In this document: piece after piece, positions 1,551-28,283 of the stretch
Numbering within the stretch: position 1 is the first letter of the stretch
Layout: each line of letters opens with the position of its first letter
Source of the DNA: an uncultured Planctomycetaceae bacterium
GTDB lineage: Bacteria > Planctomycetota > Planctomycetia > Pirellulales > UBA1268
DNA length: 34,290 nucleotides
NCBI GenBank assembly: GCA_963923225.1
Contig: CAWUOA010000002.1
Span: 1 to 34,290 of the forward strand
Reading direction: 5' to 3'
Made by a program: the position numbers and the translations under genes
Notes under the pieces: model-generated
What the model saw: only the letters and a program-made list of their open reading frames with translations
Told to the model about the DNA's origin: nothing
The model's database searches: none

Positions 1551-1775
1551 ATGGCCAACACCGATCTCGATTGTCGCGGGCTGAGTTGTCCGGTGCCGAT
1601 CGTGCGGATTTCCCGCGCCATGAAGGAGATGCACTCCGGAGACACGCTGACCGTTCAGGCCAGTGACCCCTCCTTCGGAGCCGACATCGAGGCTTGGACG
1701 CGGAAACTCGGGCATCGGCTCGAATCGTTCGAGGACGTGGACGGAACGCAGACGGCCGTCATCCGGCACTCGTGA
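1551..1775 (+). CDS. tusA: TusA/SirA-family sulfurtransferase (sulfur carrier)
   Basis: 74-aa ORF MANTDLDCRGLSCPVPIVRISRAMKEM... The LSCPxP motif (Cys codon 1587-1589) and the small size are characteristic of TusA/SirA proteins. Confidence 0.85.
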   Translation: MANTDLDCRGLSCPVPIVRISRAMKEMHSGDTLTVQASDPSFGADIEAWTRKLGHRLESFEDVDGTQTAVIRHS

Positions 1776-1797
1776 CCCAGCTGGAGGAATCTCGCCC

Positions 1798-2406
1798 GTG
1801 AGCGATCACACGAACGCGGACCTCGAACGACTGATCGAGGCCGCCGTGGAGCGACGCCTCGGAGAGAGACTCGCGGCCATGGAAGGCGCGATCGCGGATC
1901 TCGGGAACCGCGTCCGGGGTCTGGGCGCGGACTGCCCCGAGGATCGCGCGACGCTGGTCGTCTTCAGCGGCGACATGGACAGGCTCTTCGCCGCGCTGAC
2001 GATCGCTTCGGGCGCGGCGGCGATGGGGATGACCGTTTCGCTGTTCTTCACGTTCTGGGCCCTCGCCGCACTCCGGGTGAAAACGACCTACTCCGGCAAG
2101 TCGTTCGGCCAGAAGATGGCCGGCTTCATGCTTCCCTCCGGCCCCGACGCCGTGCCGACCAGCCGCATGAACATGGGGGGCGTCGGCCCGGCGTTCTTCA
2201 AGATGCTCATGCGCCAGAAGAACGTGCAGTCGGTGCCGGACATGCTGGAGATGGTCCGGGAACTGGGCGTTCGCATCGTCGCCTGCGAGATGTCGATGGG
2301 GGTGATGGGGATCACGCGCGAGGAGCTCATCCCCGGTATCGACTACGGTGGCGTGGCGACCTACCTCGGTGACGCGGCCAAGTCGAAGATCACGCTGTTC
2401 GTGTGA
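1798..2406 (+). CDS. DsrE/DsrF-like (DrsE_2-type) sulfur relay protein with an N-terminal helical extension
   Basis: GTG 1798 sits 9 nt after GGAGGA (1783-1788). The C-terminal ~150 aa ([37 protein letters not shown] ... [15 protein letters not shown]) resemble the DsrE-like family that commonly neighbours TusA. Conserved Cys codon at 2284-2286. Confidence 0.8.
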
Positions 2407-2419
2407 CCCCGAGGCGAGC

Positions 2420-4603
2420 ATGGTGCCCCGACAGGACGATCTCGAGCGTGAGGTGGCCTCGCTGCGGCGGCGCAACGAGGAGCTTTCCAGTCTCTCCACC
2501 TCCCTGGCCGAGGCGAACGCCAACGCCGCGGAGTTGATGGCCGCGCTCGAGGAGGCCAACGAGCGGGAACGCCAGCTCGTGGAGCGGGGCGAGGAGCTCG
2601 CCCTGCAGACCCGGCTCGACGAGATCCTCCAGGGTGAGCGCGACGAGACGACGCTCCTGGAGAACGTGGCGAAGGAGCTGCGGGCGACCGGCAGCCTCGG
2701 CTTTCACGGAGTGCGACCGGAGCTGCTCCGCGGTGGGGAATACTGCTTCATGCCCGAAGGGCGGATCGGGTACCTCACCGTGCGGGCCGAACTGCTCCCC
2801 ACGGAACCGGCGCTCGGCACGAAGCCGTCGCTCGTCCTCCCCGAGCCCGGGCAGGGCATCGATGGCTCGTTCGTCGTCCTCATCCATGCCGGCGAGCACC
2901 GCCTCGGGTTGTTTCACATCGACTCCCCGCCTCGGGACGCGCGTTGGTGTCGCCGCTGGGTGCCGCTCCTCAAGTCGTTCGGCTCCCAGGTCGGCGTCGC
3001 CATCCAAAGGCTCCGGGCGGAGGCGGCGAACGAACGGATCAACGCCGATCTGCTCCGGGCGCGGGACGCCGCCGTCGAGGCGAACTACGCCAAATCGATG
3101 TTCCTGGCCAACATGAGCCACGAACTGCGCACCCCGATGAACGCGATCATCGGCTACAGCGAGATGCTCATCGAGGAAATCGCGACGATGAGCGAGGGGG
3201 AGGTGCTCTCCGACCTGCGCAAGATCCACGGCGCGGGCCGGCACCTGCTGTCGCTCATCAACGACGTGCTCGACATCTCGAAGATCGAGAGCGGCAAGAT
3301 GACGCTCTACCTCGAGACGTTCGACGTTCGCGGCATGGTGGACGAGGTGGAGAGCACCGCACTGCCGCTGATGCGGGCCAAGGGGAACGGGCTGATCGTC
3401 ACCGTCGCCGCAGACGTCGGCCAGATGCACAGCGACCTGACCAAGGTCCGGCAGACGCTGTTCAATCTGCTGAGCAACGCGGCGAAGTTCACCGATCACG
3501 GCGACGTTCGCCTCGACGTCCGGCGGGAGTCCCGAGCGGGCCGGGAGACGCTCGAGTTCGAGGTCAGCGACACGGGCATCGGCATGACGGCCGAGCAACT
3601 CGGCAGGCTGTACGAGCCGTTCTCGCAGGCCGACGCGTCGACCACCCGGCGCTACGGGGGAACGGGACTCGGCCTGGCCATCAGCCGTCGCTTCTGCAGG
3701 ATGCTCGGCGGCGACGTCTCCGCCGAGAGCGAGCCGGGCCGCGGGTCGGTGTTCCGGGTCTCCCTCCCGGCGCTGGCGTCGGACGCACCGCCCTCCGCCC
3801 CCGTCGTCGGGACGACCGGCGAGCCGACCGGCCAGGAACGCCCCTGCGTGCTCGTCATCGACGACGATCCCTCGGTGCTCGACCTCATGAGACGCTATCT
3901 CGAGCGCGAGGGGTTCGCGGTGATGAGCGCGACGAACGGACGGGACGGGATAGCCCTGGCGAAGAAGCATCTTCCGATCGCGATCACGACGGACATCATG
4001 ATGCCGGAGATGGACGGCTGGTCGGTGATCGGCGCGCTGAAGAACGATCCCGCCACCGCCTCCATCCCGATCGTCGTGGTGACGATCACCGACAACCGGG
4101 AGATGGGCATCGCCCTGGGGGTCTCCGACTATCTCGCCAAGCCCGTGGACTGGGCGCGCCTGGGCAGGCTGATGTCGCGATTCCGGTCGCACCTTCCCGA
4201 ACATCCCGTCCTGGTCGTCGACGACGATCCCGCGTGCCGCGAGCAGGTGTGCAGGGCGCTGGCGCGGGACGGCTGGCAGGTCACCAGCGCCACCAACGGC
4301 CGGGAGGCGATCGAGGCCGCGGCCGCGAGGACTCCCGCGGTCGTCCTCCTCGACCTCATGATGCCGGAGATGGACGGCTTCGAGTTTCTCGGACGCTTCC
4401 GCGCCATGGCCGGCTGCAGGGACGTGCCGGTCGTCGTGGTCTCCGCACTCGATCTCACGCCGACTCAGCGATCCCGACTCGACAGCGACGTCGTGGAGTA
4501 CATCGGAAAATCCGGGTCTACCGCGGGGGACGTCGCGGTCTACCTCCGGGAGCGGCTCGGCGCGATCCGCGGCGACACCCATCCCCGGCCGTCCGCATCC
4601 TGA
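2420..4603 (+). CDS. hybrid sensor histidine kinase: coiled coil, GAF-like domain, HisKA, HATPase_c, REC, REC
   Basis: ATG 2420 ([22 protein letters not shown]...). H-box [16 protein letters not shown] (His codon 3119-3121). ATPase boxes [25 protein letters not shown]. Two receivers: [10 protein letters not shown] (Asp codon 3992-3994) and [10 protein letters not shown] (Asp codon 4352-4354). No transmembrane segment seen. Confidence 0.9.
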
Positions 4604-4620
4604 CCCCCGCGAGAACCTCC

Positions 4621-4995
4621 ATGCCGAGAATCCTCCTCGTCGAAGACAACGAACTCAATCGCGACATGCTCTCCCGCAGACTCGCGCGGAAGGGGTACGT
4701 CGTCACGGTGGCCGTCGACGGCGCGGAGGCGATCGACAAGGCGGGCAACGGGGAAGCGGACCTGATCCTGATGGACATGAACCTGCCGGTGATCGACGGA
4801 TGGGAGGCCGCCCGCAGGATCAGGTCGAGCGAGACCGCGGGCAGGATCCCCATCATCGCCTTGACCGCGCACGCGATGGCAGGCGACCGGGAGAAGGCGA
4901 TCTGGGCCGGCTGCAACGAATACGAGACGAAGCCGGTCGATTTCGAGCGTCTGCTGGCGAAGATCGAGGCCTTCCTCGGACCCCGACCGACATGA
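4621..4995 (+). CDS. single-domain response regulator (CheY-like receiver)
   Basis: MPRILLVEDNELNRDMLSRRLARKGYVV...LILMDMNLPVIDGW (Asp codon 4774-4776)...ALTAHAM...YETKPVDF. No output domain. The stop overlaps the next start (ATGA at 4992-4995). Confidence 0.9.
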   Translation: MPRILLVEDNELNRDMLSRRLARKGYVVTVAVDGAEAIDKAGNGEADLILMDMNLPVIDGWEAARRIRSSETAGRIPIIALTAHAMAGDREKAIWAGCNEYETKPVDFERLLAKIEAFLGPRPT

Positions 4996-6488
4996 CCCGT
5001 CAGCCGTCCTCGCTCGCGCACGAACTCCGCTCGCCACTCAATCAGATTCTCGGTTACTGCGAGATCGCGATCGAGGACGCGGAGGCCGCCGGCGTCGACG
5101 ATCTCGTCGCCGATCTGCAGCGGATCCACGACGCCGGCACGAGGCTTCTCGCCGTCGTGGAGTCGACCTTGGCGCCGTCGATCGCCTCGGTCGTCCCGCT
5201 CTCGGCCGACGTCATCGACCGGGAGGTCCGCGGTCCCGTCGACGCCATCGCCGGCTACGCCGATTTGGCCGGTGAGCGCGCGGCCGAGTGCGGGCTCGAC
5301 TCCACGGTGAGCGACCTCGCGAAGATCCGCGGCGCAGCCCACCGTCTTCTCGGGGTGGTCACCGCGAATCTCGGCGTCTCGCCGGTGACCGGGGCGCCGG
5401 CAGGCACCGACGGGCCGCCCCCGGAGGTCGGCCGCAGCCCGCTGGTGGGCGACATCCTCGTCGTCGACGACAACGCCGAGAACAGGGAGATTCTCTCACG
5501 CCGTCTCGGCCGGCTGGGCCATCGGGTGACCACCGCGGACGACGGACAGGAGGCGATCGAGAAGGCCGGTGCCGGCGCGTGCGACGTGATGTTGCTGGAT
5601 CTCCGCATGCCGCGCATGGACGGATTCTCGGTGCTCGAGCGGATGAAGGCCGACCCGAGGCTCCGGGACATCGCGGTCATCGTGCTGTCCGCGGCGGACG
5701 ACGCGGTGTCGGTGACGCGCTCGATCGCGCTCGGGGCCGAGGACCACCTGCGCAAGCCCGTCGATCCGGTGTTCCTCCGGACGCGGATCGGTGCGGCGCT
5801 GGAGAAGAAGCGTTTCGCCGACCGCGAGCGGGCCTACCTGCAGAAGATCGAGGAGGAGCGGGCCCGTTCCGACGCCCTGCTGGAAGTCATTCTGCCCGCG
5901 GACATCGCCGCCGAGTTGAAGTCCGAAGCGACGGTGCGTCCGCGGCGATTCGAGGACGTCGGGGTGCTTTTCTGCGACATCGTCGGCTTCACCTCCTACT
6001 CCGAACGAACGCCCCCCGAAGTGCTGCTGGAGCAATTGCAGAGTCTGGTCGAGGCCCAGGAGCGGGCCACCGAGAAGCACGGCCTGGAGAAGATCAAGAC
6101 GATCGGCGACGCGTTCCTGGCCGTGGCGGGGATCGGCCCGCCCATGGACACCGCGATGGCCTGCGTCCGCTGTGGATTGGACATGCTCGCCGCGGCGGCG
6201 AAGACCCCTCCGTTCTGGCAGTTGCGGATCGGCATCCACTGCGGCCCCGCGGTGGCTGGAGTGGTCGGTCGGAAGAAGTATCAGTACGACGTCTGGGGTG
6301 ACACCGTGAACACCGCCTCGAGGGTCGAGCACGCGGCGTCACCGGGCACGGTGTGCGTGACCAGGTCGACCTGGGATCGCATTTCGTCCCGTTGCCGGGG
6401 AGCGTCGCTCGGCAAGGTGGAGATGAAAGGCAAGTCTCCGACCGAAATCGTGAGGATCGAGGGAACGCCGGAGGAATGGGGGGAGTAG
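4992..6488 (+). CDS. two DHp/H-box-like repeats, REC, and a class III adenylate cyclase catalytic domain
   Basis: MTRQPSSLAHELRSPLNQILGY (His codon 5019-5021). REC with VMLLDLRMPRMDGF (Asp codon 5598-5600). Cyclase domain from about 5944: metal Asp residues in LFCDIVGFT and KTIGDAFLA, adenine-specifying Lys (EKIKTIGD) and Asp (YDVWGD), and transition-state NTASR. No HATPase_c boxes. Confidence 0.9.
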   Translation: MTRQPSSLAHELRSPLNQILGYCEIAIEDAEAAGVDDLVADLQRIHDAGTRLLAVVESTLAPSIASVVPLSADVIDREVRGPVDAIAGYADLAGERAAECGLDSTVSDLAKIRGAAHRLLGVVTANLGVSPVTGAPAGTDGPPPEVGRSPLVGDILVVDDNAENREILSRRLGRLGHRVTTADDGQEAIEKAGAGACDVMLLDLRMPRMDGFSVLERMKADPRLRDIAVIVLSAADDAVSVTRSIALGAEDHLRKPVDPVFLRTRIGAALEKKRFADRERAYLQKIEEERARSDALLEVILPADIAAELKSEATVRPRRFEDVGVLFCDIVGFTSYSERTPPEVLLEQLQSLVEAQERATEKHGLEKIKTIGDAFLAVAGIGPPMDTAMACVRCGLDMLAAAAKTPPFWQLRIGIHCGPAVAGVVGRKKYQYDVWGDTVNTASRVEHAASPGTVCVTRSTWDRISSRCRGASLGKVEMKGKSPTEIVRIEGTPEEWGE

Positions 6489-6604: not shown

Positions 6605-7915
6605 ATGAAAACGACCGCGGCCGTTTGCCTGGCGGCAGCCTTGGTCGCCGCGTGTTCCCGGCCCGCGACGGCTCAATTCGGACCGTTCCTCACCGGCGCC
6701 GGTCCCGTCAACAGGTCGATGGCAGGAGCTTCCACCGCCGCTCCGCTCGACACGCTGGGAGCCTTTCTCTGGAATCCGGCCACGATCACCGCGCTGGAGA
6801 ACTCGGCGGACATCGGTCTGGAGGTTTTCCTCCCTTCGGCGACGCTTTCCTCGTCCGTCGACGCCAACGCCTTCGGACCCGGAGCGCCTCCGATGACGTT
6901 GTCGGGACGCACGGCGAGCCAGAGCGGCGCCTTTCCGATCCCGAACTTCGGCTTCGTCTACCGGCCCGACGACTCGCCGTGGTCGTACGGCGTCGGCCTG
7001 CTGACCCTCGCGGGATTCGGCGTCAACTATCCGGGGGATCCGTCGAATCCGCTCTTGTCACCGCAACCGCCCGACGGGTTCGGCGTCGGCCCGATCTATT
7101 CCCAGTACGCGCTGCTCCAGATCGTGCCGACGATCGCCCTGCAGGCGACGGACAGGCTCTCCCTCAGTTTCTCGCCGCTGATCGACATCGCCACGCTCAC
7201 CGTCGATCCGGGCATTCTGTCGTCGCCGGACATGGTCGGTGGATCTCCCGTCTACCCTCCGCTGACGCACGGGAGCTACCACTGGGGTGGAGGATTCATG
7301 CTGGGGGCGTGGTACCGCACCGACGTCGACTGGGACGTGGGCGTCTCCTACCGCAGCCTGCAGTCCTTCATTCCGTTCCAGTACGCCTCCCGGCGCCCCA
7401 ATGGCGAGCCGAGGACGGTCGATTTTCTGGTCGACGCACCCGCGACCGTGTCGCTCGGCACCGCCTACCGAGGCTTCGACCGTTGGCTCTTCGCGCTCGA
7501 TCTCCGCTATCTCGACTTCGCGTCCACGCCGCCCTATTCAGCCGCCGGATTCACCCCACAGGGCGCGGTGCGCGGGCTCGACGTCGAGAGCATGTTCGCC
7601 CTCGCCACCGGCGTCCAGTACCGCGTGAACGAGCGGGCGTCGATCCGGAGCGGTTACTCGTACTGCACGAAGCCGATCGGATCCGACCAGGCCTTCGCCA
7701 ACGTCGCCTCGCCGTTCGTCCTGCAGCACGCCGTCACCCTGGGCGGGACGTATGCGATCTCGGATCGTTTCGACGTGTCGTTGGCGTACGCGCACTTCTT
7801 CACCGGAAGCGTGAGCGGGCCTTGGCAGTCCCCCGCGGGTGCGATCCCTGGCACGAACGTCACCTCGACGCTCTCCGCCGACGCGGTCATCGCGGGCGTC
7901 GGGTTCGACTACTGA
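6605..7915 (+). CDS. outer-membrane transport protein, OmpP1/FadL/TodX family
   Basis: ATG 6605. Signal peptide MKTTAAVCLAAALVAACSRPATA-QF. N-terminal GAGPVNRSMAGASTAAPLDTLGAFLWNPATI motif typical of the FadL family. Alternating beta-strand-like sequence throughout and a C-terminal aromatic residue (GVGFDY). Confidence 0.75.
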   Translation: MKTTAAVCLAAALVAACSRPATAQFGPFLTGAGPVNRSMAGASTAAPLDTLGAFLWNPATITALENSADIGLEVFLPSATLSSSVDANAFGPGAPPMTLSGRTASQSGAFPIPNFGFVYRPDDSPWSYGVGLLTLAGFGVNYPGDPSNPLLSPQPPDGFGVGPIYSQYALLQIVPTIALQATDRLSLSFSPLIDIATLTVDPGILSSPDMVGGSPVYPPLTHGSYHWGGGFMLGAWYRTDVDWDVGVSYRSLQSFIPFQYASRRPNGEPRTVDFLVDAPATVSLGTAYRGFDRWLFALDLRYLDFASTPPYSAAGFTPQGAVRGLDVESMFALATGVQYRVNERASIRSGYSYCTKPIGSDQAFANVASPFVLQHAVTLGGTYAISDRFDVSLAYAHFFTGSVSGPWQSPAGAIPGTNVTSTLSADAVIAGVGFDY

Positions 7916-11120: not shown

Positions 11121-11213
11121 ATGTCCCCCGTACTCGCCATCGCCGGAGTGATCGCGACGGCGCTGGCGGTGTATCTCGTCGTGGCGATGCTCGCCCCGGA
11201 ACGGTTCTCATGA
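11121..11213 (+). CDS. kdpF: K+-transporting ATPase subunit F
   Basis: 30-codon [33 protein letters not shown]. The YLxxAMLxPERF ending is typical of KdpF. The stop overlaps the kdpA start (ATGA 11210-11213). Confidence 0.75.
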
Positions 11214-12910
11214 CGGCGGCGTGGGCGGAGATCGTCGCCATCCTGGCGCTGACGTGCCTCGCGGCCGTCGCGGCGGTCCCCTGGATCGCCGCCCTGTTTC
11301 CCGTCGACGCCGCGCGACCGGGGACGCCCCCGTGGATCGTCGGCGCCATCGAGCGGCCCTTCCTCCGGGCGGCCGGAGCGTGGCCGCCGCGCGAGACGGG
11401 GGCGGTGGAGTACGTCCGGGCGCTGGTGGTGATGCACGGCGCGGGTTTCGTCCTGCTCCTGGCGATCCTCCGATCGCAGGGATTCCTTCCCTGGAATCCG
11501 GCGGGGCTTCCGGCGGTGCCCTGGGGAATCGCCGTGAACACGGCGGCGAGCTTCGTCACCAACACCAATTGGCAGTCGTACGCCGGCGAGACGACCCTCT
11601 CCCCGCTCTCGCAGGTCTGTGGGCTCACCCTGCAGAACTTCGTCTCCGCGGCGATCGGCCTCTGCGCCCTGATGGCCCTGACACGAGGGTTCGTGCGGAC
11701 CGCCTCGCCCACGGTGGGGAACTTCTGGCAGGACCTCGTCCGCGCCACCGTGCTGCTCCTCCTTCCGCTGTCGACGATGCTCGCGCTGCTCCTGGTCTGG
11801 CAGGGGGTGCCGCAGTCGCTCGCCGCGACGGCCGGCGCCGGCGGCACGGGGCCGATCGCGACCCAGACGGCGATCGCGCTGGTCGGCAGCAACGGCGGCG
11901 GCTACTTCAACGCCAACGTCGCGCACCCGCTGGCCAATCCGACACCGCTCTCGAACGTCCTGGCGATCGTCGGCATGCTCGTCCTTCCGATCGCCGGCTG
12001 CCTGGCGTTCGGACGCATGGTGGGGGACCGCCGGCAGGGGCGAGCCATCCTCCTGGCCAACGTCCTCCTCTTCCTCCCGGCGCTGGCGGCGATCGTGGCC
12101 GCGGAGACGGCGCCGAACCCGCTTCTCCCCGAAGGCGTCGACCAGACCGCCACGCTCGAGCACGACGGCGGCTCCCTCGAGGGGAAGGAGGTGCGTTTCG
12201 GCAGCGGCGCGACGGCGCTGTTCGCCGCCTCCACCACCGCCACGAGCACCGGCGCCGTCGACGGCATGCACGACAGCCTGAGCCCGATCGGGGGCCTGGT
12301 GACGTTGTTCCTGATGCAGCTCGGCGAGGTCGTCTTCGGCGGCGTCGGCACGGGGGTGGCCGGGATGCTCGCCTACGCGGTGGTGGCGGTGTTCGTGGCC
12401 GGCCTGATGGTGGGCCGCAGCCCCGAATACCTCGGCAAGAAGATCGAGGCGCGGGAGATGAAGCTCGCGATGCTCGTCCTCCTCGTGCCCCCGATGCTCA
12501 CGCTGCTGGGCTCCGCCGCGGCCTGCGTCGTGCCGGGTGCCGCGGCCGCGGCGCCGAACCCCGGGCCGCACGGCTTCTCCGAGATGCTCTACGCCTTCAC
12601 CAGCGCCGCCAACAACAACGGCTCGGCCTTCGCGGGGCTCGACGCCTCGAGCCGGTTCTGGACGCTCTCGCTGGCCGCGGCGATGGCGGCCGGACGGCTC
12701 CTGTCGCTGGTGTGCCTGGTGCTCCTCGGCGGATCGCTCGCCGCGAAGCGGCCGGTGGCCGCGTCGATCGGCACGCTCCCCACCCACGGGCCGCTGTTCA
12801 TCGTGCTCCTCTCGGGCGTGGTGATCCTCGTCGGGGCGCTGTCCTTCGTGCCGGCACTGGCCCTGGGGCCGATCGCCGAGGCGCTGGCGCCGCCGGGAGC
12901 GACCCCATGA
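11210..12910 (+). CDS. kdpA: K+-transporting ATPase subunit A
   Basis: 566-aa polytopic protein with the KdpA hallmark ...[20 protein letters not shown]... and ...[13 protein letters not shown]... Confidence 0.95.
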
Positions 12911-15578: not shown

Positions 15579-17560
15579 CCCGCGATCCGGACCGCCCCGA
15601 CCCCGACGCCCTCCTGGCGGAGATCACGAAGCAGGAGCGGGCCGCACGCCGCGGGAGGCTCCGCATCTTCTTCGGCTTCTCGCCCGGCGTCGGCAAGACC
15701 TACTCCATGCTCGAGGCCGCGGGGCGGCTGCGCGCCGACGGGATCGACGTCGTGGCGGGGATCGTCGAGACCCACGGCCGCGCGGAGACGGCGCGGCTCC
15801 TCGAAGGCATCGAAACACTGCCCCGGCTCGAGGTCCCCTACCGTGGCCACGTGCTCCACGAGTTCGACCTCGACGGGGCGGTCGCCAGGCGGCCGGCGCT
15901 GGTGCTGGTCGACGAGCTCGCCCACACCAACGCCCCCGGGCTGCGCCACGGGAAGCGCTGGCAGGACGTCTTCGACCTGCTCGACTCCGGGATCGACGTC
16001 TTCACCACGCTCAACGTCCAGCACGTGGAGAGCGTCGTCGACCTCGTCGAGCGGGCGACCGGGATCCGTGTCCGGGAGACCGTCCCCGACACGGTGCTCG
16101 ACAGGGCCGACGAGATCGAGCTCGTCGACGTCCCCCCCGAGGTGCTGCTGGAGCGCCTCCGCGACGGGAAGATCTATCTTCCGGACGTCGCCAGCCGGGC
16201 CGTCGACCGCTTCTTCAAGCGGTCCAACCTCCTCCACCTGCGCGAGCTCGCGCTGCTCCGCGTCGCCCGGCGCGTCGGCGCCGACGCCGAGGAGACGCGG
16301 CGTGGCGGAGCCCGCCCCAATCCGGGCACCACCGAGCGGATCGTCGTCGGCGTGGGGGAGGGGTTCGGATCGGCGCGCGCCATCCGCGACGCCGCGCGGA
16401 TCGCGGCGGGCCTGCGGGCGGACTGGGTGGCGGTGCACGTCCGGCGGCCGTTCGCCCGGCCGCCGCTGGAGACCACGGCGGCACGGCTGGAGGCGAACCT
16501 CCGCCTCGCCGAGTCGATGGGCGCCCGGGTGGAGCGGGTCGTGGGGGCGTCGGTCGCCGCGGCGCTCCTCGACGAGGCCCGCCGCATCGACGCCACGCGG
16601 ATCGTCGTCGGCCGGCCCGGGCGCACGGGATGGCCCGAGCCGTTCCGCGAGAACGTCCTCGACCGCCTGGTGCGCGAAGGCGGGCCGGTGGACGTCGTCG
16701 TGGCGGGGGAGCCCGAACGGACCGACGACGGCGTCGCGCAGCCCGTCGGCGCGGCGGCGCCGCTGGCGCTCGGGCCGGCGATCGCTGGCGCCGTGGCGAT
16801 CTCCGTCGGGGCGGCGCTCGCCGTCGGCCGGTGGCTGAGGCCCTGGGTCGACGACCACGACATGGCGCTGTTGGCGCTGTTGATCGTGGTGTCGGCGTCG
16901 CTCCGCTTCGGACGCGCCGCGGGAATCCTCGCGGTCCTGCTTTCGGCCCTGGGGATCGACCTGCTCTTCCTCCACCCGGAGTTCAACCTGGCGATCGCCG
17001 ACACCAAGAAGGTCGTGTCGCTCGTCCTCCTCCTCTCGGTGGGCATCGTCGTCGCCGAGTTGATCGTCCGGACGCGGGCGCAGCGCGAGGGGGCGCTCGC
17101 CTCCGAACGGCGCGTGCGCCGGCTCCTCGAGCTCTCGCGCCGCCTGGCGACGGCGGTCGACGTCGACGAGGCCGCGAAGGCACTTGCCGAGACGGCCTCC
17201 GAGGTCGTCGCCGCGGGGGCCGAGGTGATGCTCGCCGAGCCGTCGGGGGAGCTGCGCGCCGCCGCCCGTACGGGTTCCCTTCCCCACGCCGCGGCCGGCT
17301 CGGGCGTCGTGCTGTGGAGCCACGCCTTCGGCCAGCCCGCCGGCCGTGGCACCGAGACCCTCCCCGGCTCGGGCGTCTTCTGTCTGCCGCTCCGCGAGGC
17401 GGGCCGGACGCGGGGCGTGCTCGTCATCGACGCCGATCCGCCGAGATCCCTCTCGCGCGACGAACGCGAGCTCCTCGAATCCGCGGCGCGCCAGACCGCC
17501 GCCCGACTCGCCGTCCTCCCTCCGGCCGATCGTCTCCCCCCCGGGCCCCATCCCCGATGA
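15575..17560 (+). CDS. kdpD: KdpD-like sensor lacking the histidine kinase core (KdpD N-terminal domain, Usp-like, 4-TM region, GAF-like)
   Basis: ATG 15575 (ATGA overlap with kdpC). RLRIFFGFSPGVGKTYSMLEAA...VVAGIVETHGRAET...LDELAHTN... is the KdpD N-terminal domain. Hydrophobic block about 16740-17060. The GAF-like tail ends ...ERELLESAARQTAARLAVLPPADRLPPGPHPR-stop. No H-box and no N/G1/G2 ATPase boxes anywhere in the 661 aa. Confidence 0.85.
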   Translation: MTRDPDRPDPDALLAEITKQERAARRGRLRIFFGFSPGVGKTYSMLEAAGRLRADGIDVVAGIVETHGRAETARLLEGIETLPRLEVPYRGHVLHEFDLDGAVARRPALVLVDELAHTNAPGLRHGKRWQDVFDLLDSGIDVFTTLNVQHVESVVDLVERATGIRVRETVPDTVLDRADEIELVDVPPEVLLERLRDGKIYLPDVASRAVDRFFKRSNLLHLRELALLRVARRVGADAEETRRGGARPNPGTTERIVVGVGEGFGSARAIRDAARIAAGLRADWVAVHVRRPFARPPLETTAARLEANLRLAESMGARVERVVGASVAAALLDEARRIDATRIVVGRPGRTGWPEPFRENVLDRLVREGGPVDVVVAGEPERTDDGVAQPVGAAAPLALGPAIAGAVAISVGAALAVGRWLRPWVDDHDMALLALLIVVSASLRFGRAAGILAVLLSALGIDLLFLHPEFNLAIADTKKVVSLVLLLSVGIVVAELIVRTRAQREGALASERRVRRLLELSRRLATAVDVDEAAKALAETASEVVAAGAEVMLAEPSGELRAAARTGSLPHAAAGSGVVLWSHAFGQPAGRGTETLPGSGVFCLPLREAGRTRGVLVIDADPPRSLSRDERELLESAARQTAARLAVLPPADRLPPGPHPR

Positions 17561-20650: not shown

Positions 20651-22036
20651 ATGCCGAGCCGGACCGAGCGACCGGCCGCACGGGGCGACCATCGGGCGGC
20701 GCACTGGCGGTGGCGGACGCGGATGCTCGCGCTGGAGATCAACTCCGCCTGGTGGCTCGACCATTTCCTGGTGCCGGTCTTCCTCCTCGGCATCGTCGGA
20801 GCCTTCTCCCTCCTCTGGGTGCGCACGCGCCGCGTCGATCTGCTCCCCGCCGCGTGGGCGGGGATCGCGCTGGCGGCCCTGATCGCCGCGATCGTCTCCT
20901 GGATGTCGGCCCGGCGGCGTTTCGAGTCGATCGAATCGGCGCGCGTGCTCCTCGAGGATCGGCTGGGCCTCGATGCCCGTCTCTCCGCGGCGGAGGCGGG
21001 CGTGGGGGAGTGGCCGCCGATCGCCGCCGGCACGGACCTCTCCTGGCCGGTGCGGATCCGCGCGGGCCGTCCGCTCCTCCACGCCTCCCTCGCCGCCGCC
21101 ATGCTCGCCGCGGGAGCGCTGGTGCCCGTCACCGACGCGGACGCCGCCCGGTCCCTGCCGGATCGCCCCCCGCCGGACGCCGAAGCGGTGTCGCGGTGGG
21201 TCGAGGAGATGCGCGAGGCGAAGGCCGTCGACGAGGATGCCGCCGCCGATCTTTCCGACCGTGTCGCCGAGCTCCTCGCCAGGCCCCGCGACCGCTGGTA
21301 CGAGCATTCCGGGCTCGAGGCGGCGGCCCATCTCCGAGAGCAGACGGCGGCCGACATCGCGGCGCTCGCCCGCGATCTGGCCGAGGCGGGCAGTGCCGCC
21401 GAGGCCCTCGCCGGCGGAAAACGCGGGGAGGCGCGGGACGCCGCCGCGCGCCGTCTGGCCGGGGCCGCTTCCCGTCTCGCGTCCGGGGGCCTGCGCCCCT
21501 CCGAGGCCACCGCGGCGGCACTCGCGACGAGCGGCCCGGAGGGCATCGCCGAGCTCTCGCCCGAGCGACTCGCGCGGCTGGCCGAGGCGCTCGCCGCCAA
21601 CCGCTCGGCTCTTCGCCAGGCGCTCCAACGGGCCGGAGCCTTCGACCTCGGAGCCTTCACCCCCGGAGAGCCCTGCCCCGAATGCGGGGCCGAGTGCAAA
21701 AGCGGCAAGCCCTGTGCGAAATGTGGAAGCCGAGGAGGGCGGGACGGCGGCCGCGGGGACGTCACCCGCGGGCCCGGTACCGCGCCGATGACGCTCGGCG
21801 CGGAAGGCGAGCTCGGCACCCGGCGGAGCGAGCGGGTGACCGCGCCGCTCGACGTGGAGCGCGGTGCGGCCGGTGAGCTTCTGGAAGTGGTCGACGGCGA
21901 CGAGCCGGTGAACGAGGAATGGGCCGGCCCGGTCGATGGCGGCACCGCGGTGGATGGAGACGGGGGGGGTGCCGTGCGGGTCGACGACCTCGCGCCGCGC
22001 GAACGGGCCACCCTCCGCCGCTACTTCAAAGAGTGA
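20651..22036 (+). CDS. hypothetical membrane protein: 2 TM, Ala/Glu/Arg-rich helical region, Cys-cluster (zinc-ribbon-like)
   Basis: ORF 20621..22036; start ambiguous (ATG 20621, 20651 or 20723). TM segments FLVPVFLLGIVGAFSLLWV and AWAGIALAALIAAIVSWM. A third hydrophobic stretch LLHASLAAAMLAAGALVPV. CPECGAECKSGKPCAKCG at 21674-21724. No family recognised. Confidence 0.6.
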   Translation: MPSRTERPAARGDHRAAHWRWRTRMLALEINSAWWLDHFLVPVFLLGIVGAFSLLWVRTRRVDLLPAAWAGIALAALIAAIVSWMSARRRFESIESARVLLEDRLGLDARLSAAEAGVGEWPPIAAGTDLSWPVRIRAGRPLLHASLAAAMLAAGALVPVTDADAARSLPDRPPPDAEAVSRWVEEMREAKAVDEDAAADLSDRVAELLARPRDRWYEHSGLEAAAHLREQTAADIAALARDLAEAGSAAEALAGGKRGEARDAAARRLAGAASRLASGGLRPSEATAAALATSGPEGIAELSPERLARLAEALAANRSALRQALQRAGAFDLGAFTPGEPCPECGAECKSGKPCAKCGSRGGRDGGRGDVTRGPGTAPMTLGAEGELGTRRSERVTAPLDVERGAAGELLEVVDGDEPVNEEWAGPVDGGTAVDGDGGGAVRVDDLAPRERATLRRYFKE

Positions 22037-22091
22037 CCCGGCCGACGACCGGCCTGGAAAGACTCGCAAAACGCGATCGGGGGATCCCCTC

Positions 22092-23162
22092 ATGACGACC
22101 GGCTCGGGCGAACGGCACCAGACACCGGGCGCGCCCCGGCTCCCCGCGCTCGACGACGACGAGGCCCGGCTCGCCGCCGGCGCGATCGGCCGGCTCACCG
22201 AGACGCTGCGAACGGTGCTCTTCGGGCAGGACCGGATGGTGGAGACCGTCGTCACCGGGATCCTCGCCCGCGGCCACGTGCTTCTCGAGGGGCTCCCGGG
22301 CCTCGGCAAGACGGAGCTCGTGAAGGGTCTGTCACGCGCGCTCGACCTGACGAGCAAGCGGGTGCAGTTCACCCCCGACCTCCTCCCCGGCGACGTGACC
22401 GGGAATCCGGTCCTCGAGGAGACCGATGGCCGGCGCACGTTCCGCTTCCAGCCCGGTCCGGTGTTCGCCAACCTCCTCCTGGCGGACGAGATCAATCGGG
22501 CCTCGCCGAAGACCCAGTCGGCGCTCCTCGAGGCGATGCAGGAGCGGAGCGTGACGGTGATGGGGCAGACGCACGCCCTCCCCCGACCGTTCGTCGTCCT
22601 CGCCACGCAGAACCCGATCGAGCTCGAGGGCACCTATCCGCTCCCCGAGGCGCAGCTCGACCGGTTCCTCTTCAAGATCGACGTTCCCCCCGCCGACGAG
22701 GCGACGCTCGAGCGAATCGTCCTGGAGCGGGAGATCGGCCTGCCCCCCGACGTGCCCCGGGTGATGGATGCCGCGGCGCTCGAGCGCCTCCAGGAACAGG
22801 TCCGGCGCGTGTTCCTCCCGCAGCCGGTGGCGGCCTACGTCGCCCGGCTCGTGGCGGCCACGACCCCCGGCACGCCCACCGGCGCCGGACTCCGCTTCGG
22901 GGCGAGCCCCCGCGCCGCACTGGCGCTGGCGGCGGCCGCCCGCGCCCGGGCGCTGTGCCAGGGGCGCATCAACGCCGGCTACGACGACGTCCGCGCGGCC
23001 GCCCTGCCGGTCCTCAGGCACCGCGTCCTTCTCGACTACGGAGCACGGCTCGAGGGGCTCACCCCCGACCGCATCGTCGCCCGCCTCCTCGAGGCCGTGC
23101 CGGCGCACGACAAGGAGCTCCCCTCGACGCTGGCCGCCGCGAAGGTCCGGGGGCGCGCATGA
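22092..23162 (+). CDS. MoxR-family AAA+ ATPase
   Basis: ATG 22092. Walker A LEGLPGLGKTEL, Walker B LLLADEINRASPKTQSALLEAMQE, then VLATQNPIELEGTYPLPEAQLDRF. This is the canonical MoxR signature. Confidence 0.9.
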   Translation: MTTGSGERHQTPGAPRLPALDDDEARLAAGAIGRLTETLRTVLFGQDRMVETVVTGILARGHVLLEGLPGLGKTELVKGLSRALDLTSKRVQFTPDLLPGDVTGNPVLEETDGRRTFRFQPGPVFANLLLADEINRASPKTQSALLEAMQERSVTVMGQTHALPRPFVVLATQNPIELEGTYPLPEAQLDRFLFKIDVPPADEATLERIVLEREIGLPPDVPRVMDAAALERLQEQVRRVFLPQPVAAYVARLVAATTPGTPTGAGLRFGASPRAALALAAAARARALCQGRINAGYDDVRAAALPVLRHRVLLDYGARLEGLTPDRIVARLLEAVPAHDKELPSTLAAAKVRGRA

Positions 23163-24991
23163 TCGGACCGCCGTGCCGCCGCGCGATCGCCGCGCTTTTC
23201 GTGCTGGCGGCGGCCCGTTGCGCCGCGCCGGCGGCGGCGTGGGCGGCGCCCAAGGCCCCGTCGATGACCGAGTCGGTCGTCGTCTTCACCGACCGCGAGT
23301 CGCGTCTGTCGATCGAGGCCACCGGCTGGCTCGGTCTGGCGGACATCGCGTCCGACGGCGACCGCGGAGCGGTCCCGGTCACGATCCGCATCGTCAACGG
23401 CAGCGACCACGACGTGACGGTGGCGGTCGAGCCGAGAGCCGGTACCGTCACGGCCGTCCTGCCGTCGGTCGTGATCGCGGCGCCTGCCGGCTCGACGACG
23501 ACGGAGACGGTCCACGTCGAGGCGATGCCCAGCGCCGGCGGTCGGTTGGGATCGATCTCCGGCGCGTTCGTCGGCAGCCTCCGCGCGGCCCATTCGGGCG
23601 GCGGATCCCGCCACGTCGTCGAGCTTTCCGTGGGCGAGACGTACGTGTCGGCGGCTCCCGGTGCTCCCTCGTCCGGGATTCCGCGGATGGCGGCGACGGC
23701 GACGGCGCTCGAGCGGCTCGCGTCCGCCATCGGCGACGGCGACGCGCCGCGTCTATCGACCCTGGACACGATCGACCTCGCGGCGGCGCCGGAGGACTGG
23801 CGCGGCTGGTCGGCGCTGCGGGAGGTGGTGATCTCAGACGATGAATGGGAACGGCTGCCGGCCGTGACGCGGCAGGCGATGTTCCAGTGGCTGGCGCTCG
23901 GCGGGGTGCTGCGCGTCGTCGCCGAGGATCTCGATCCCGCCCGGCTGGACCGGATCGGTCTGCCGGAGCCGGGTGCCGACGACGTCCGACGCGTCGGCGC
24001 CGGCGAGGTGATTCCCATACCCCTCGACGACGTCTCTTTGAGACACGTCGTCTCACAGGGGTGGTTCGTTGATGGCGGCGACGGCTGGCGGGATCCGCGG
24101 CCGCTCCATCCCTGGCTGCCGGACGCTCTCGCGGCGGCGGGAGGCTTCTCGGCGCGCACGTTTCCCCTCAACGCGATCCTCGCGTTCCTGGTGCTCTTCG
24201 CGCTCGCGGCAGGCCCGGCGAACGTCATCCTCGCGGCCCGCGGAGGGAGACCGGCACGGGTCTTCTGGACGACGCCCCTGCTGTCGCTCGCCGCCGCCGC
24301 GGTCCTCACCGCCATCATGCTCCTCGGCGACGGAGTGGGCGGGGCGGGCGTGCGGCGCACGCTGTGCCTCATCGACCCGGCCCGCTCGAGCGCGGGTGTG
24401 CTGCAGGAGCAGTTCTCTCGCACCGGCGTGCTCTTCGGCGGATCGTTCCCCGTCCGGGAGCGGAGCCGGATGCGGCCGGAGCCGACCATCGCCGGCGGTC
24501 TCTCTTCCACGAAGGGCGTCGTCGAAGGACGGCGGTTCACCGACGCCCCCGGCCAGAGGCGTGGCGACTGGTTCCGCAGCCGTTCCGACCAGGCCTTCTC
24601 GCTGGCCGCGATCCGCCCCCACCGCGGCCGACTGGATTGGAGCGGCGGGGAATCGCCGGCGATCGAGTCGAGCATCGACGCCGCGATCGACCGGGTGATC
24701 GTGCGCGACGAGCGCGGCAGGCTGTGGCGGGGCGGCCAGACCGAGGCCGGCCGAACGACGGCGCTCGAACCGGCCACGGAGGACGAGCTCAACTCGATGC
24801 TCGCGACGCTCGCCCCGGATCAGACCGGCGCCGTCGCCGTGGCCGTCGCCCGGCTCCGCGACGCCCCCGGCCTCGCCTGGGCGGAGGCGGCGTCCCCCGC
24901 ACGCCTCGCCATCGCCACGCACGGCGCCATCCGCTGGCGCGACGACCGCGCCTGGTTCGTCATCCCGGTGGGACGGAGGGACCAGCCGTGA
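23159..24991 (+). CDS. hypothetical exported/membrane protein (signal peptide plus two central TM helices), no recognisable family
   Basis: ATG 23159 overlaps the MoxR stop (ATGA). Signal-like MIGPPCRRAIAALFVLAAARCAAPAAAWA. TM pair FPLNAILAFLVLFALAAGPANVIL and TTPLLSLAAAAVLTAIMLLG. Normal composition and high GC3. Confidence 0.7.
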   Translation: MIGPPCRRAIAALFVLAAARCAAPAAAWAAPKAPSMTESVVVFTDRESRLSIEATGWLGLADIASDGDRGAVPVTIRIVNGSDHDVTVAVEPRAGTVTAVLPSVVIAAPAGSTTTETVHVEAMPSAGGRLGSISGAFVGSLRAAHSGGGSRHVVELSVGETYVSAAPGAPSSGIPRMAATATALERLASAIGDGDAPRLSTLDTIDLAAAPEDWRGWSALREVVISDDEWERLPAVTRQAMFQWLALGGVLRVVAEDLDPARLDRIGLPEPGADDVRRVGAGEVIPIPLDDVSLRHVVSQGWFVDGGDGWRDPRPLHPWLPDALAAAGGFSARTFPLNAILAFLVLFALAAGPANVILAARGGRPARVFWTTPLLSLAAAAVLTAIMLLGDGVGGAGVRRTLCLIDPARSSAGVLQEQFSRTGVLFGGSFPVRERSRMRPEPTIAGGLSSTKGVVEGRRFTDAPGQRRGDWFRSRSDQAFSLAAIRPHRGRLDWSGGESPAIESSIDAAIDRVIVRDERGRLWRGGQTEAGRTTALEPATEDELNSMLATLAPDQTGAVAVAVARLRDAPGLAWAEAASPARLAIATHGAIRWRDDRAWFVIPVGRRDQP

Positions 24992-25005
24992 GCGGATCCT
25001 GTCCG

Positions 25006-25959
25006 ATGATCGAGGTCAGTGGCCTCCACCGGTGGTTCGGCCCGGTCCACGCCGTGCGCGATCTCTCCTTCAAAGTCCCCCACGGCGCCGTCGTCGGCTT
25101 CATCGGCGCCAACGGCGCCGGCAAGACGACCACGATGCGGATCATCGCCACGCTCGACGAGCCGACCTCCGGTCGGGTCCGAGTCGACGGCCACGACGTC
25201 GTCGAGGAGCCCTCCGCGGTGCGCCGCATCGTCGGCTGGATGCCCGACAGCCTCGGCACGTACGACACGATGACCGTTCTCGAGTACCTCGACTTCTTCG
25301 CGCGTGCCTACGGGCTGGGCGGGGCCCGCCGCCGGGCCCGGGTGGAGGAGGTGATCGACTTCGCCGATCTCGGTCCGCTCGCCGACCGGCAGATGGCGAA
25401 GCTCTCCAAGGGCATGGCGCAGCGGCTCTGCTTCGGGCGGATGCTCGTCCCCGATCCCGGGCTGCTGATCCTCGACGAGCCGGCCGCCGGCCTCGACCCC
25501 AAGGCCCGCCTGGAGTTCAAGAACCTGGTCCGCCTGCTCGCCGGCCGTGGCAAGACGATTCTCGTGTCGAGCCACATCCTCAGCGAGCTCGGCGAGATGT
25601 GCGACGAGCTCGTGTTCATCGACTCGGGGAGTCTCGTCTTCCAGGGCCACGCCGACGAGCTGCGGCACGGCGTGCCGACGGCCGGATCGCCCGGATCGGC
25701 CGACGCCGTCTCCACCGTCGTGGTCTCGGTCGCCGGCGATCCGGCCCCGCTCCATGCATGGGCGGCGGAGCGGCCCGGCTGGCGGCTGCTCGAGAAACGG
25801 CGCGACGGTGCGAAGGTCGAGGTGCCAGGCGGCGACCCGGCCGCGGTCGCGCTGGCACTGCGGCGCCTGGTGGAAGGGGGCATCGAGGTGACGGAGTTCC
25901 GCCGCGAAGGGCGGCTCCTGGAGGAGGCCTTCGTCGACATGGTGGGGCGGAACCGATGA
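25006..25959 (+). CDS. ABC transporter ATP-binding protein (ABC-2/CcmA-like, with a C-terminal extension)
   Basis: MIEVSGLHRWFG... Walker A GANGAGKTT, signature LSKGMAQR, Walker B LLILDEP, H-loop VSSHIL. Alternative start GTG 24988 would overlap the upstream stop (GTGA 24988-24991). Confidence 0.9.
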   Translation: MIEVSGLHRWFGPVHAVRDLSFKVPHGAVVGFIGANGAGKTTTMRIIATLDEPTSGRVRVDGHDVVEEPSAVRRIVGWMPDSLGTYDTMTVLEYLDFFARAYGLGGARRRARVEEVIDFADLGPLADRQMAKLSKGMAQRLCFGRMLVPDPGLLILDEPAAGLDPKARLEFKNLVRLLAGRGKTILVSSHILSELGEMCDELVFIDSGSLVFQGHADELRHGVPTAGSPGSADAVSTVVVSVAGDPAPLHAWAAERPGWRLLEKRRDGAKVEVPGGDPAAVALALRRLVEGGIEVTEFRREGRLLEEAFVDMVGRNR

Positions 25960-27395: not shown

Positions 27396-28267
27396 ACCAC
27401 GCGGAGATCCACGCCTCGGCCCGCGGCGCGGCCGACGTCCTCGCCCTCCCGCTGCGCCGCGAGCGTTTCGCGGGCTCCGCCGGTCCGTTGTCCGGCCGCG
27501 GGAGCGGGAGCTCCCTCGAGTTCCACGACCAGCGACGCTACGTCCCCGGCGACGACCCGCGCCACATCAACTGGCTCGCCACCGCGCGGGGCGGAGAGTA
27601 CGTCCTCAAGCAATGGCGCGAGGAGGTGTCCCCGTGCATCGACATCCTCCTCGACCACTCCCCCTCCATGTTCCTCTTTCCCGCCAAGGCCCGGCGCGTG
27701 TGGGAACTGGCCTACTTCGCCATCGAGGCCGCCCGCCGATCGGGGGCCCGCCTCCGCATCCTCCGTCTCGGCCGCGAGCGGGGCACGGCGCCGGAAGCCA
27801 TCGCCCCGGAGCGGGCGCTCGCCCACGACTGGCCGGCGGTGCCCGCTCCCCCCCGGGCGCCCGCGCCGCTGGCCGCCGATCTGTCGCGTGCCGATCCCCG
27901 GCCCGGATCGCTGCGGATCCTCGTCTCCGACCTGCTCGACCCGGCCCCTCCCGACGGGGCGACCTCGGCGCTGGCGGCCGGCAACGGCCGGGCCGTGATC
28001 CTCGCCCCGTCGGCCGCGGAGGAACGTGACCCGGACTGGTCGGGCAACGTCGAATTCGAGGATTGCGAGACCGGCGCGCGGCGGTTCTCGCTCGTCGACG
28101 AGACGATCATGGCACGGTACCGGGCCGCATGGCAGCGTCATGTCGGAGCCTGGCGGGAGTCCGCCGCGCGACGCGGGATCGGCATGGCGATGGTCGCCGC
28201 CGAGGGGCCGTTCCTCGACGCCCTGCGCGGCGAGGCGCTGCCGGCCGGCGTCCTGGAGCCGTGGTGA
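27392..28267 (+). CDS. DUF58 domain protein (vWA-like, MoxR-associated)
   Basis: ATG 27392 overlaps the permease stop (ATGA). GSGSSLEFHDQRRYVPGDDPRHINWLATAR is the DUF58 hallmark, followed by the MIDAS-like ILLDHSPSM. Confidence 0.85.
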   Translation: MNHAEIHASARGAADVLALPLRRERFAGSAGPLSGRGSGSSLEFHDQRRYVPGDDPRHINWLATARGGEYVLKQWREEVSPCIDILLDHSPSMFLFPAKARRVWELAYFAIEAARRSGARLRILRLGRERGTAPEAIAPERALAHDWPAVPAPPRAPAPLAADLSRADPRPGSLRILVSDLLDPAPPDGATSALAAGNGRAVILAPSAAEERDPDWSGNVEFEDCETGARRFSLVDETIMARYRAAWQRHVGAWRESAARRGIGMAMVAAEGPFLDALRGEALPAGVLEPW

Positions 28268-28283
28268 CGCCCGCGACGGGAGC

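Follow-up and report, generated by a model that had tools for sequence, protein, structure and literature searches.

Why should the genes for two proteins of sulfur-carrier families, TusA and DsrE_2, head a block that goes on to encode a hybrid histidine kinase, a single-domain receiver and an adenylate cyclase? This arrangement occurs in an uncultured Planctomycetaceae bacterium (GenBank assembly GCA_963923225.1), within positions 1 to 34,290 of contig CAWUOA010000002.1, read on the forward strand; this whole stretch of 34,290 nucleotides is called the window below. A first-pass annotation, made from the letters of the window alone, had proposed that the operon may convert a sulfane-sulfur or thiol-redox signal into cyclic AMP (cAMP), and comparison with related loci points to what would be an undescribed bacterial way of sensing sulfur or thiol status. 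The observation that carries this reading is that the N-terminal input module of the kinase is linked to the TusA and DsrE genes strictly, in both directions of search and across phyla. Judged from the sequences, the conserved unit would consist of the carriers and a coiled-coil input module, the cyclase being a lineage-specific output. Taken over all loci, the finding widens to an input module that goes with carrier genes, is rare and so far undescribed, and serves several outputs; it may best be regarded as a putative variant of accessory-protein-coupled two-component signaling.

Linkage of the input module to the carrier genes

Pairing of TusA and DsrE_2 genes is already known. A forward scan with DsrE_2 (alignment A1) recovered 80 genome loci from many phyla, with TusA directly upstream of DsrE_2 in nearly all of them. 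In the loci most like the window (L001–L009, L012–L015, L017, L023 and L050), the DsrE gene or genes are followed at once by a gene for a protein with a coiled-coil motif, ANAxAAELxxxLEE, as is likewise the case in L081–L083; in L010 and L027 a kinase without the motif follows the carriers. The reverse scan, started from the first 224 residues of the kinase (alignment A2), returned TusA and DsrE_2 immediately upstream and on the same strand in 11 of 11 metagenome loci, some of these being nearly identical to one another. When the 1.4 Mb of fetched loci were translated in all six frames, the motif, even in a relaxed form, was confined to the gene that follows the DsrE gene or genes. At every locus examined, the module stood directly behind TusA–DsrE_2, or behind a DsrE gene where the contig was cut. 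Loss of this synteny in relatives had been named beforehand as grounds for abandoning the proposal, which thus came through strongly in both directions.

The kinase-linked loci are labelled Pirellulales, Pirellula, Rubripirellula, Planctomycetaceae and Myxococcota, including Nannocystis, and further linked loci come from metagenome-assembled genomes (MAGs) labelled Armatimonadota and Actinomycetota. On two long contigs from planctomycetes, TusA, DsrE_2 and hybrid kinase stand as a bare trio amid unrelated neighbors. The module itself is rare, since an exhaustive HMMER scan of 1.84 billion protein representatives gave only 31 clusters at E ≤ 1e-3. Searching word-indexed protein collections with the sensor sequence by itself and with its profile found just 1 and 2 matches, and HMMER and DNA-pattern scans were needed. 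As a separate matter, certain sample labels call for care: "Armatimonadota" (L003, L004) and "Enterobacterales" (L011, 70% G+C) look doubtful as MAG labels, and L001 (CAMDDJ010000064.1) is labelled a Candidatus Kuenenia stuttgartiensis MAG, yet its G+C content is 68% and its gene block resembles that of Pirellulales, so that this contig is probably mis-binned.

What lies behind the carriers is far from uniform (Table 1). In all three alternative-output representatives (3/3) the module stands behind the carriers, although the domains that it heads are different ones. A cyclase was seen just in the closest relatives (L001, L002 and L084) and, in another architecture, in L097. Six of the linked proteins (L009, L013, L014, L017, L050 and L083) have the coiled coil alone and lack the GAF-like part described below. 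Persistence of a linkage across phyla while the outputs are swapped is the pattern expected for an input and its partner, not for co-regulation. The earlier proposal that the operon leads to cAMP therefore fits the window, where a cyclase is present, and is too narrow for the family, in which the cyclase is one of several endpoints, the others being kinase, GGDEF-EAL, STAS and PP2C.

Two of these arrangements deserve a description of their own. In L096 (1814-8255), where the STAS protein carrying the input module precedes the SulP–STAS–carbonic anhydrase gene, ChrB/chromate-transporter genes lie upstream of TusA. Loci of the Pirellula type have a second hybrid kinase, a membrane-bound dCache-HAMP protein encoded divergently from tusA (L086:287-4915, minus strand, and likewise in L005–L007, L087, L088 and L091). 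Beside it are a lone receiver, 65% identical to that of the window, and a HisKA-REC-SpoIIE protein, an arrangement that suggests two kinases feeding one relay.

The module opens with a long helix, whose near-invariant motif across relatives is L-A-x-A-N-A-x-A-A-E-L-x-A-x-L-E-E-A. In the window kinase the coiled-coil helix covers residues 5–72, with the motif (18 residues encoded) at nucleotides 2504–2557. Usually some 100 residues come after the motif helix, and then an R-W-x-x-R-W helix that runs into the dimerization and histidine phosphotransfer (DHp) domain. In the window kinase this interval is occupied by a GAF-like fold (residues ~76–173); W176 and W180 are near-invariant, and the helix that follows enters the DHp domain. 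Within residues 1–223 there was no Pfam match at E ≤ 0.01 and no NCBIfam match, and comparison of the family profile with PDB sequences gave weak matches to GAF domains (E = 0.002 to 0.3).

An AlphaFold2 model built on a 25-sequence alignment (predicted local distance difference test, pLDDT, 87.6) superseded a poor model from 2 sequences (pLDDT 62), and contains helices at 5–72, 76–89 and 174–223 with three confident strands, residues 103–148 being poorly modelled. Its top Foldseek matches were nearly all GAF domains, with probabilities of 0.9–1.0, E = 1.6e-3 to 0.1, and template modeling scores of ~0.4 by query length and up to 0.68 by target length. The GAF-like sensor of the first-pass annotation thus gains some support from the predicted fold, for which "GAF-like" seems a fair description; by sequence profile the module would still fall outside the GAF family. 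That the kinase is a cytoplasmic hybrid with two receivers was also correctly read: no hydrophobic segment reaches transmembrane strength (maximum KD19 = 1.32), and Pfam finds HisKA, HATPase_c and two REC domains. The H-box (SHELRTP), the N and G boxes (NAAKFT, DTGIGM, GGTGLGL) and the receiver aspartate motifs (TDIMMP, LDLMMP) are intact.

Anatomy of the gene block

The block in the window had been described as five same-strand genes with spacers of 22, 13 and 17 nucleotides and one ATGA overlap (4992–4995), and every one of these coordinates is correct, the overlap being real. The DsrE_2 gene starts with GTG, and GGAGGA lies 10 nucleotides 5′ of this codon. It is the extent of the block that needed revision. 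In L001, L002 and L084, nucleotide similarity to the window (~70%) has as its exact limits the start of TusA and the stop of a FadL/TodX-like gene, and the conserved unit therefore comprises six genes, one more than had been annotated. A public, independent gene call on two contigs whose kinase is identical to that of the window yields all six of these genes, at lengths of 74, 202, 727, 124, 498 and 436 amino acids (aa). A simple consensus scan revealed no terminator-like or promoter-like site inside the block, in keeping with the view that none separates the sulfur-carrier genes from the signaling genes. No Rfam family was found in the window. The region 5′ of the block is not conserved among relatives, so no regulatory site can be proposed there.

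The G+C content of the window is high, at about 65–77%, and planctomycete-like, and the closest DsrE_2 homologues are named Planctomycetota or Pirellulales. At such G+C contents, gene calling from the third codon position (GC3) was too noisy, and Pfam scans of long open reading frames were used instead.

Table 1. Coordinates and domain content of the block, of the kdp genes in the window and of related loci (window positions unless a locus is named).
Feature	Position	Strand	Description
TusA-family protein	1551..1775	+	74 aa; PF01206 at 1.1e-21; Cys8 in LDC, Cys13 in CPVP
DsrE_2-family protein	1798..2406	+	202 aa; PF13686 at 1.5e-45; invariant Cys163; N-terminal helical extension of ~48 aa
Hybrid kinase, whole gene	2420..4603	+	727 aa; HisKA + HATPase_c + 2 REC (Pfam)
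Hybrid kinase, input module	2420..3091	+	coiled-coil helix + degenerate GAF-like fold; no Pfam/NCBIfam match
Hybrid kinase, transmitter and receivers	3089..4603	+	residues HisKA 224-292, HATPase_c 339-451, REC1 477-581, REC2 ~600-712 (Pfam)
Single-domain receiver	4621..4995	+	124 aa; PF00072 at 1.1e-26
Tandem DHp hairpins–receiver–class III adenylate cyclase	4992..6488	+	498 aa; Pfam HisKA + REC + Guanylate_cyc; PF00211 at 1.5e-41
FadL/TodX-family outer-membrane protein	6605..7915	+	436 aa; PF03349 at 6.7e-18; last gene of the conserved block
kdpA	11210-12910		then kdpB and kdpC (ending 15578)
Extra PF02635 DsrE, CxxC(xxxC)	L003:1305-1703
Extra PF02635 DsrE, CxxC(xxxC)	L009:8511-8897
Extra PF02635 DsrE, CxxC(xxxC)	L010:10621-11007
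Extra PF02635 DsrE, CxxC(xxxC)	L014:885-1280
Extra PF02635 DsrE, CxxC(xxxC)	L015:10644-11024
Extra PF02635 DsrE, CxxC(xxxC)	L050:6985-7365
Extra PF02635 DsrE, CxxC(xxxC)	L024:8749-9108
Extra PF02635 DsrE, CxxC(xxxC)	L095:375-773
Output after carriers, L097			kinase-REC-Hpt, then REC-cyclase
Output after carriers (DsrE), L095			GAF-GGDEF-EAL headed by the input module
Output after carriers, L096			STAS protein with the input module, then SulP-STAS-carbonic anhydrase gene
Output after carriers, L009			input module fused directly to a PP2C/SpoIIE phosphatase
Output after carriers, L008			kinase, then REC, then HisKA-REC-SpoIIE
Output after carriers, L010			kinase-REC-Hpt-REC-GGDEF-CBS; no recognisable coiled-coil motif

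The TusA protein scores 76.9 bits against a PF01206 cut-off of 28.6, and its active-site CPxP cysteine (codon 1587–1589, correctly assigned beforehand and encoding Cys13 in LSCPVP) is kept in all linked loci. Against the NCBIfam equivalog for E. coli-type TusA (NF001423) it reaches 42.7 bits, with a cut-off of 78, and is thus a family member rather than an equivalog. A second cysteine sets the linked proteins apart. Cys8 and Cys13 (C-x4-C) occur together in 32 of the 33 sensor-linked loci with an aligned TusA, versus 9 of 53 unlinked loci, where alanine or valine is usual at the position five residues before the CPxP cysteine. This pair may be the site of a di- or polysulfide bridge. The Cys8 codon lies at 1572–1574 of the window.

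DsrE_2 scores 155.4 bits against a PF13686 cut-off of 25, and the conserved cysteine that the first-pass annotation had located at codon 2284–2286 is Cys163, which is invariant in 24 homologues (alignment A1). The closest solved structures are 3pnx (6.5e-25) and 2qs7, a DsrE2B (4e-15); the score against the NCBIfam sulfur-carrier DsrE2 equivalog (NF047629) is 74.9 bits, below its cut-off of 210. A dozen related loci have a third small gene between DsrE_2 and the signaling protein, which encodes a PF02635 DsrE with a CxxC (Table 1). This additional carrier accompanies five of the six coiled-coil-only variants, but fewer than half of the variants that have a GAF-like part. That the N-terminal helix of DsrE_2 might pair with the coiled coil of the kinase was considered as a specific feature and rejected, because similar extensions are present in many unlinked phyla and the linked L050 is without one.

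Downstream of the kinase, the last protein of the relay has HisKA at residues 6–61 without an HATPase_c domain, a receiver at 155–266 and the cyclase at 317–487. Its N-terminal part consists of tandem DHp hairpins, of which the first (nucleotides ~5007–5174) has the H-box histidine and the second (~5220–5381) has an arginine there, again with no ATPase domain. The internal repeat scores 104, versus 27 ± 5 for shuffled sequences, and is kept in L001, L002 and L084, or four genomes with the window; the H-box histidine is conserved in these three and in L086. In the PP2C-output homologue of L086, a short linker comes after a single HisKA match. A chain with two hairpins could fold into a monomeric four-helix bundle with one histidine, the equivalent of a histidine phosphotransfer (HPt) protein. 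Such a role is supported by L097, where a genuine Hpt domain sits on the kinase in the equivalent place and the cyclase protein is REC-cyclase only.

Six potential phospho-sites can be counted, not the five claimed earlier: the kinase histidine, the two aspartates of its receivers, the aspartate of the lone receiver, the H-box histidine and the aspartate of the cyclase receiver (two His, four Asp). Of the relay proteins, the lone receiver is the best conserved, at 73–78% identity in L001, L002 and L084 and 59–65% in PP2C-output loci, and may serve as a phosphate sink or branch point. As in the homodimeric type, one chain of the cyclase has the two metal-binding aspartates, the Lys and Asp that select adenine, and the Asn and Arg of the transition state. 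Its motifs FCDIVGFT, EKIKTIGD, YDVWGD and TVNTASR align with both C1 and C2 of the mammalian cyclases, an alignment that upholds the earlier prediction of ATP as substrate from the Lys in EKIKTIGD and the Asp in YDVWGD. The gene and domain anatomy of the block, with its catalytic and phospho-acceptor residues intact, is therefore in place. Given the second, ATPase-less histidine module and the parallel in L097, these domains would most naturally be read as first proposed, as a His-Asp-His-Asp relay with an ATP-specific class III cyclase at its end.

The sixth protein is a full-length FadL/TodX homologue (PF03349, 64.8 bits against a cut-off of 29.7, profile positions 9–419 of 421), and its hydrophobic N-terminus (MKTTAAVCLAAALVAACS) qualifies as a signal peptide. 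FadL-like genes also adjoin TusA–DsrE_2 in L010, L013, L017 and L052, three of these four loci being linked to signaling genes. A porin of this kind hints at a hydrophobic compound, and a hydrophobic sulfur species as its substrate would be a guess.

In Pfam scans, the rest of the window encodes functions unrelated to the block, namely a CaCA exchanger, kdpABC, a KdpD-like protein, RtcB, futalosine-pathway genes, a MoxR/DUF58/BatA/VWA cluster, an ABC ATPase and a short-chain dehydrogenase. The KdpD-like protein (~15600–17560, plus strand) has KdpD sensor, Usp, DUF4118 and GAF domains with no HisKA or HATPase_c, and because RtcB comes straight after it, a kinase core would not fit in between. 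The MoxR AAA ATPase, DUF58, BatA and VWA genes (21936–32761, plus strand) form a cluster of the Bat/aerotolerance type, which is unrelated to the carrier–kinase finding.

What the carriers may report, and to whom

From this anatomy and the comparison of loci, we infer the biochemical steps and the nature of the signal as follows. The system would be cytoplasmic, and its sensing elements would be the cysteine-bearing carriers, that is, the two-cysteine TusA and DsrE_2, to which some relatives would add the CxxC-bearing DsrE. These proteins could be in a free-thiol, a persulfide- or polysulfide-loaded, or an oxidised state. The coiled coil with the ANAxAAELxxxLEE motif, backed here by the degenerate GAF-like fold, would read that state through protein–protein contact, and the contact would alter autophosphorylation of the kinase. 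Phosphate could then pass from the kinase histidine to one of its two receivers, from there to the histidine of the ATPase-less, HPt-like tandem DHp domain in the last protein, and finally to the receiver of the same protein, which would control a homodimeric class III adenylate cyclase and thus the output of cAMP. The lone receiver would be a branch or a phosphate sink. As the weakest step, the FadL-like outer-membrane protein might admit the hydrophobic compound that starts the signal. On balance, we judge this account of carriers as sensors, a transducing module and a phosphorelay to cAMP to be probable, if by a little. Functional coupling of the carriers to the kinase, and relay from it to cAMP, appear well supported by the comparative evidence.

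Several points weigh against this account. Gene adjacency, of course, proves neither a physical interaction nor its direction. There are no sulfur-oxidation or persulfide-detoxification genes in the window, and none recur near the relatives. TusA and DsrE_2 both score below the equivalog cut-offs of NCBIfam. [quoted passage not shown] Enrichment of Cys8 in TusA is partly phylogenetic, because the linked loci belong mostly to one DsrE_2 clade. In the coiled-coil-only variants, moreover, the proposed contact site lies ~90 residues from the DHp domain, and long-range transmission would be needed. The inertness of DsrE2B and the scores below equivalog level together mean that sulfur-carrier activity of the carriers in the window is assumed. 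The earlier statement that DsrE-family proteins pass persulfide sulfur accordingly holds in part: it is established for DsrEFH and DsrE3, whereas DsrE2B, the nearest relative studied, showed no such reaction in vitro.

Some of these points lend weight to a first alternative, in which the architecture is unchanged and the signal is general thiol oxidation by disulfide stress, peroxide or electrophiles, with the C-x4-C TusA acting as a disulfide switch. Such a switch would account for the second TusA cysteine, nearly universal in the linked loci, would need no sulfur-oxidation genes at its side, and would agree with the inertness of DsrE2B-type proteins toward sulfur compounds in vitro. It is harder to explain in this way why up to three carrier families (TusA, DsrE_2 and DsrE) are retained together, or why a SulP-family transporter gene comes after the sensor gene in L096, and the loci have no conserved partner of the thioredoxin or peroxiredoxin type. 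We regard general thiol oxidation as fairly unlikely, while ranking it first among the competitors.

A second alternative separates the two halves of the operon: the genes would be co-expressed without direct signaling, the carriers trafficking sulfur while the kinase senses some other cue, or the relay would control the carriers. TusA–DsrE_2 pairs without any signaling gene do occur in most phyla, and the N-terminal helix of DsrE_2 is not specific to the linked loci. The input module, on the other hand, is never found apart from the carriers, either in the reverse scan or in the alternative-output representatives, and the linkage holds across phyla despite the exchange of output domains. Co-expression alone thus seems rather improbable.

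A third possibility was raised by the first-pass annotation itself, which had named cysteines of the GAF region as targets of persulfidation. TusA and DsrE_2 would pass sulfane sulfur to Cys109 or Cys177 of the kinase, and persulfidation would switch the kinase. Both residues exist in the window kinase, and Cys177 (in ARWCRRW) has near-invariant residues on either side, W176 and R179/W180, and is also present in L001, L002, L008, L081, P0125 and P0131. Cysteine-based sensing of sulfane sulfur is also the rule in known regulators (PMC10451225, PMC9952342). The proposal fails on conservation. Among 25 family representatives there is no conserved cysteine in the input module: Cys109 (in EYCFMPEG) is confined to the window, L001, L002 and P0121, and Cys177 is replaced in most by S, T, R, F, A, M, L, V or H. 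In L003 and L004 the sensor is free of cysteine, and the six coiled-coil-only proteins are linked to the carriers without having a GAF-like part at all. The sole near-universal cysteine among full-length kinases is Cys426, in the ATPase domain. As a candidate sensing residue it was rejected, since it is generic to the kinase subfamily and is shared with the unlinked dCache kinase of L086. Direct persulfidation of the kinase accordingly strikes us as improbable, a shade more so than mere co-expression.

Least likely, finally, is that a small ligand containing sulfur, produced or supplied by the carriers, binds in a GAF-like pocket: GAF domains usually bind small molecules and are what the fold search returns, but within the module both conservation and model confidence are lowest in the pocket region (103–148), and at least six linked proteins lack the domain.

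With a sensor that has no conserved cysteine and a linked TusA that has the C-x4-C pair, the carriers are therefore favored as the actual sensors, which would be read through protein contact. This reading conceivably extends beyond the window. TusA and DsrE would then be dedicated receptor subunits in several phyla, docking on the ANAxAAELxxxLEE coiled coil and conveying their persulfide or redox state to cAMP, cyclic di-GMP (c-di-GMP), partner-switching or phosphatase outputs (here cAMP), while the FadL-like porin may admit S8 or organic polysulfanes. We put this broader proposal forward tentatively, as a possibility that falls somewhat short of probable. If it is true, kinases, c-di-GMP enzymes, STAS proteins and PP2C phosphatases would share a new and general means by which the sulfur or thiol status of the cell could act on second messengers and on decisions of lifestyle. 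This would also give a function to the poorly understood soluble DsrE_2 (DsrE2B-like) proteins. TusA, DsrE_2 and the kinase form a defined three-protein system that could be reconstituted in vitro. To our knowledge, cAMP signaling in planctomycetes has hardly been explored, and one such pathway would here gain a candidate input.

Comparison with known systems

No description of a kinase, cyclase or c-di-GMP pathway coupled to TusA or DsrE was found in the searched literature, as the first-pass annotation had also supposed for two-component pathways. An apparent mention of a DsrE protein in the Caulobacter Hmr phosphorelay proved to be a false match, the matched word being "dsRed". Sulfane-sulfur sensing in this literature is the work of one-component repressors with reactive cysteines and of one Fe-S kinase, NreB.

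The nearest described case is the NreB system, which in Bacillus licheniformis belongs to the cluster yrkD-yrkE(DsrE)-yrkF-yrkH-yrkI(TusA)-yrkJ-ydfQ-nreBC-sqr-pdo (PMC9918477). As in the window, a kinase is clustered with TusA and DsrE homologues, and that kinase responds to reduced sulfur. NreB is reported to sense sulfide through a cysteine-ligated [2Fe-2S] cluster in its PAS domain (PMC13478379). There the kinase itself is the sensor, its carriers have no assigned sensing role, and the output is a DNA-binding regulator of sqr-pdo. The sensor of the window system, in contrast, has no conserved cysteine, has another fold that no Pfam family covers, is encoded strictly next to the carriers and is accompanied by neither sqr nor pdo. 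Across its family the outputs are second messengers or a phosphatase.

A second group comprises CstR, SqrR/BigR and SoxR/sHdrR, which likewise turn sulfane sulfur into a regulatory decision and for some of which TusA has been proposed to feed the regulator. In Hyphomicrobium, TusA is a proposed, not a shown, sulfur donor to the repressors SoxR and sHdrR, and the question of a link from sulfur carriers such as TusA to regulation was raised there explicitly (PMC11582611). These proteins are one-component DNA-binding repressors, in which sulfur forms a bridge between conserved cysteines of their own. The window's signaling protein lacks the conserved sensing cysteine that marks both these repressors and NreB, and would work through a phosphoryl relay with cAMP as output.

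By analogy only, the carriers may also be compared with accessory proteins that control kinases, such as trimeric PII (GlnB) acting on NtrB, or LuxP acting on LuxQ. The likeness is that a kinase is informed of metabolic state when it binds a small protein open to covalent modification, and DsrE3-type proteins are homotrimers, as is PII (PMC11094781; PMC4175335). The partner families are unrelated, however, and binding in the window system, which we infer, would involve an N-terminal coiled coil as the dock instead of the kinase core.

Finally, the relay itself has counterparts on the output side. Spo0B and ChpT are DHp-like phosphotransferases, and cyanobacterial CyaC is a receiver-controlled class III cyclase. 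With these the window system would share the His-Asp-His-Asp logic, an ATPase-less DHp phosphotransferase and a receiver that gates an adenylate cyclase. It differs from them in that its DHp hairpin is duplicated within one chain, has a single histidine and is fused ahead of the receiver and cyclase, and in that its upstream input would be a pair of sulfur carriers.

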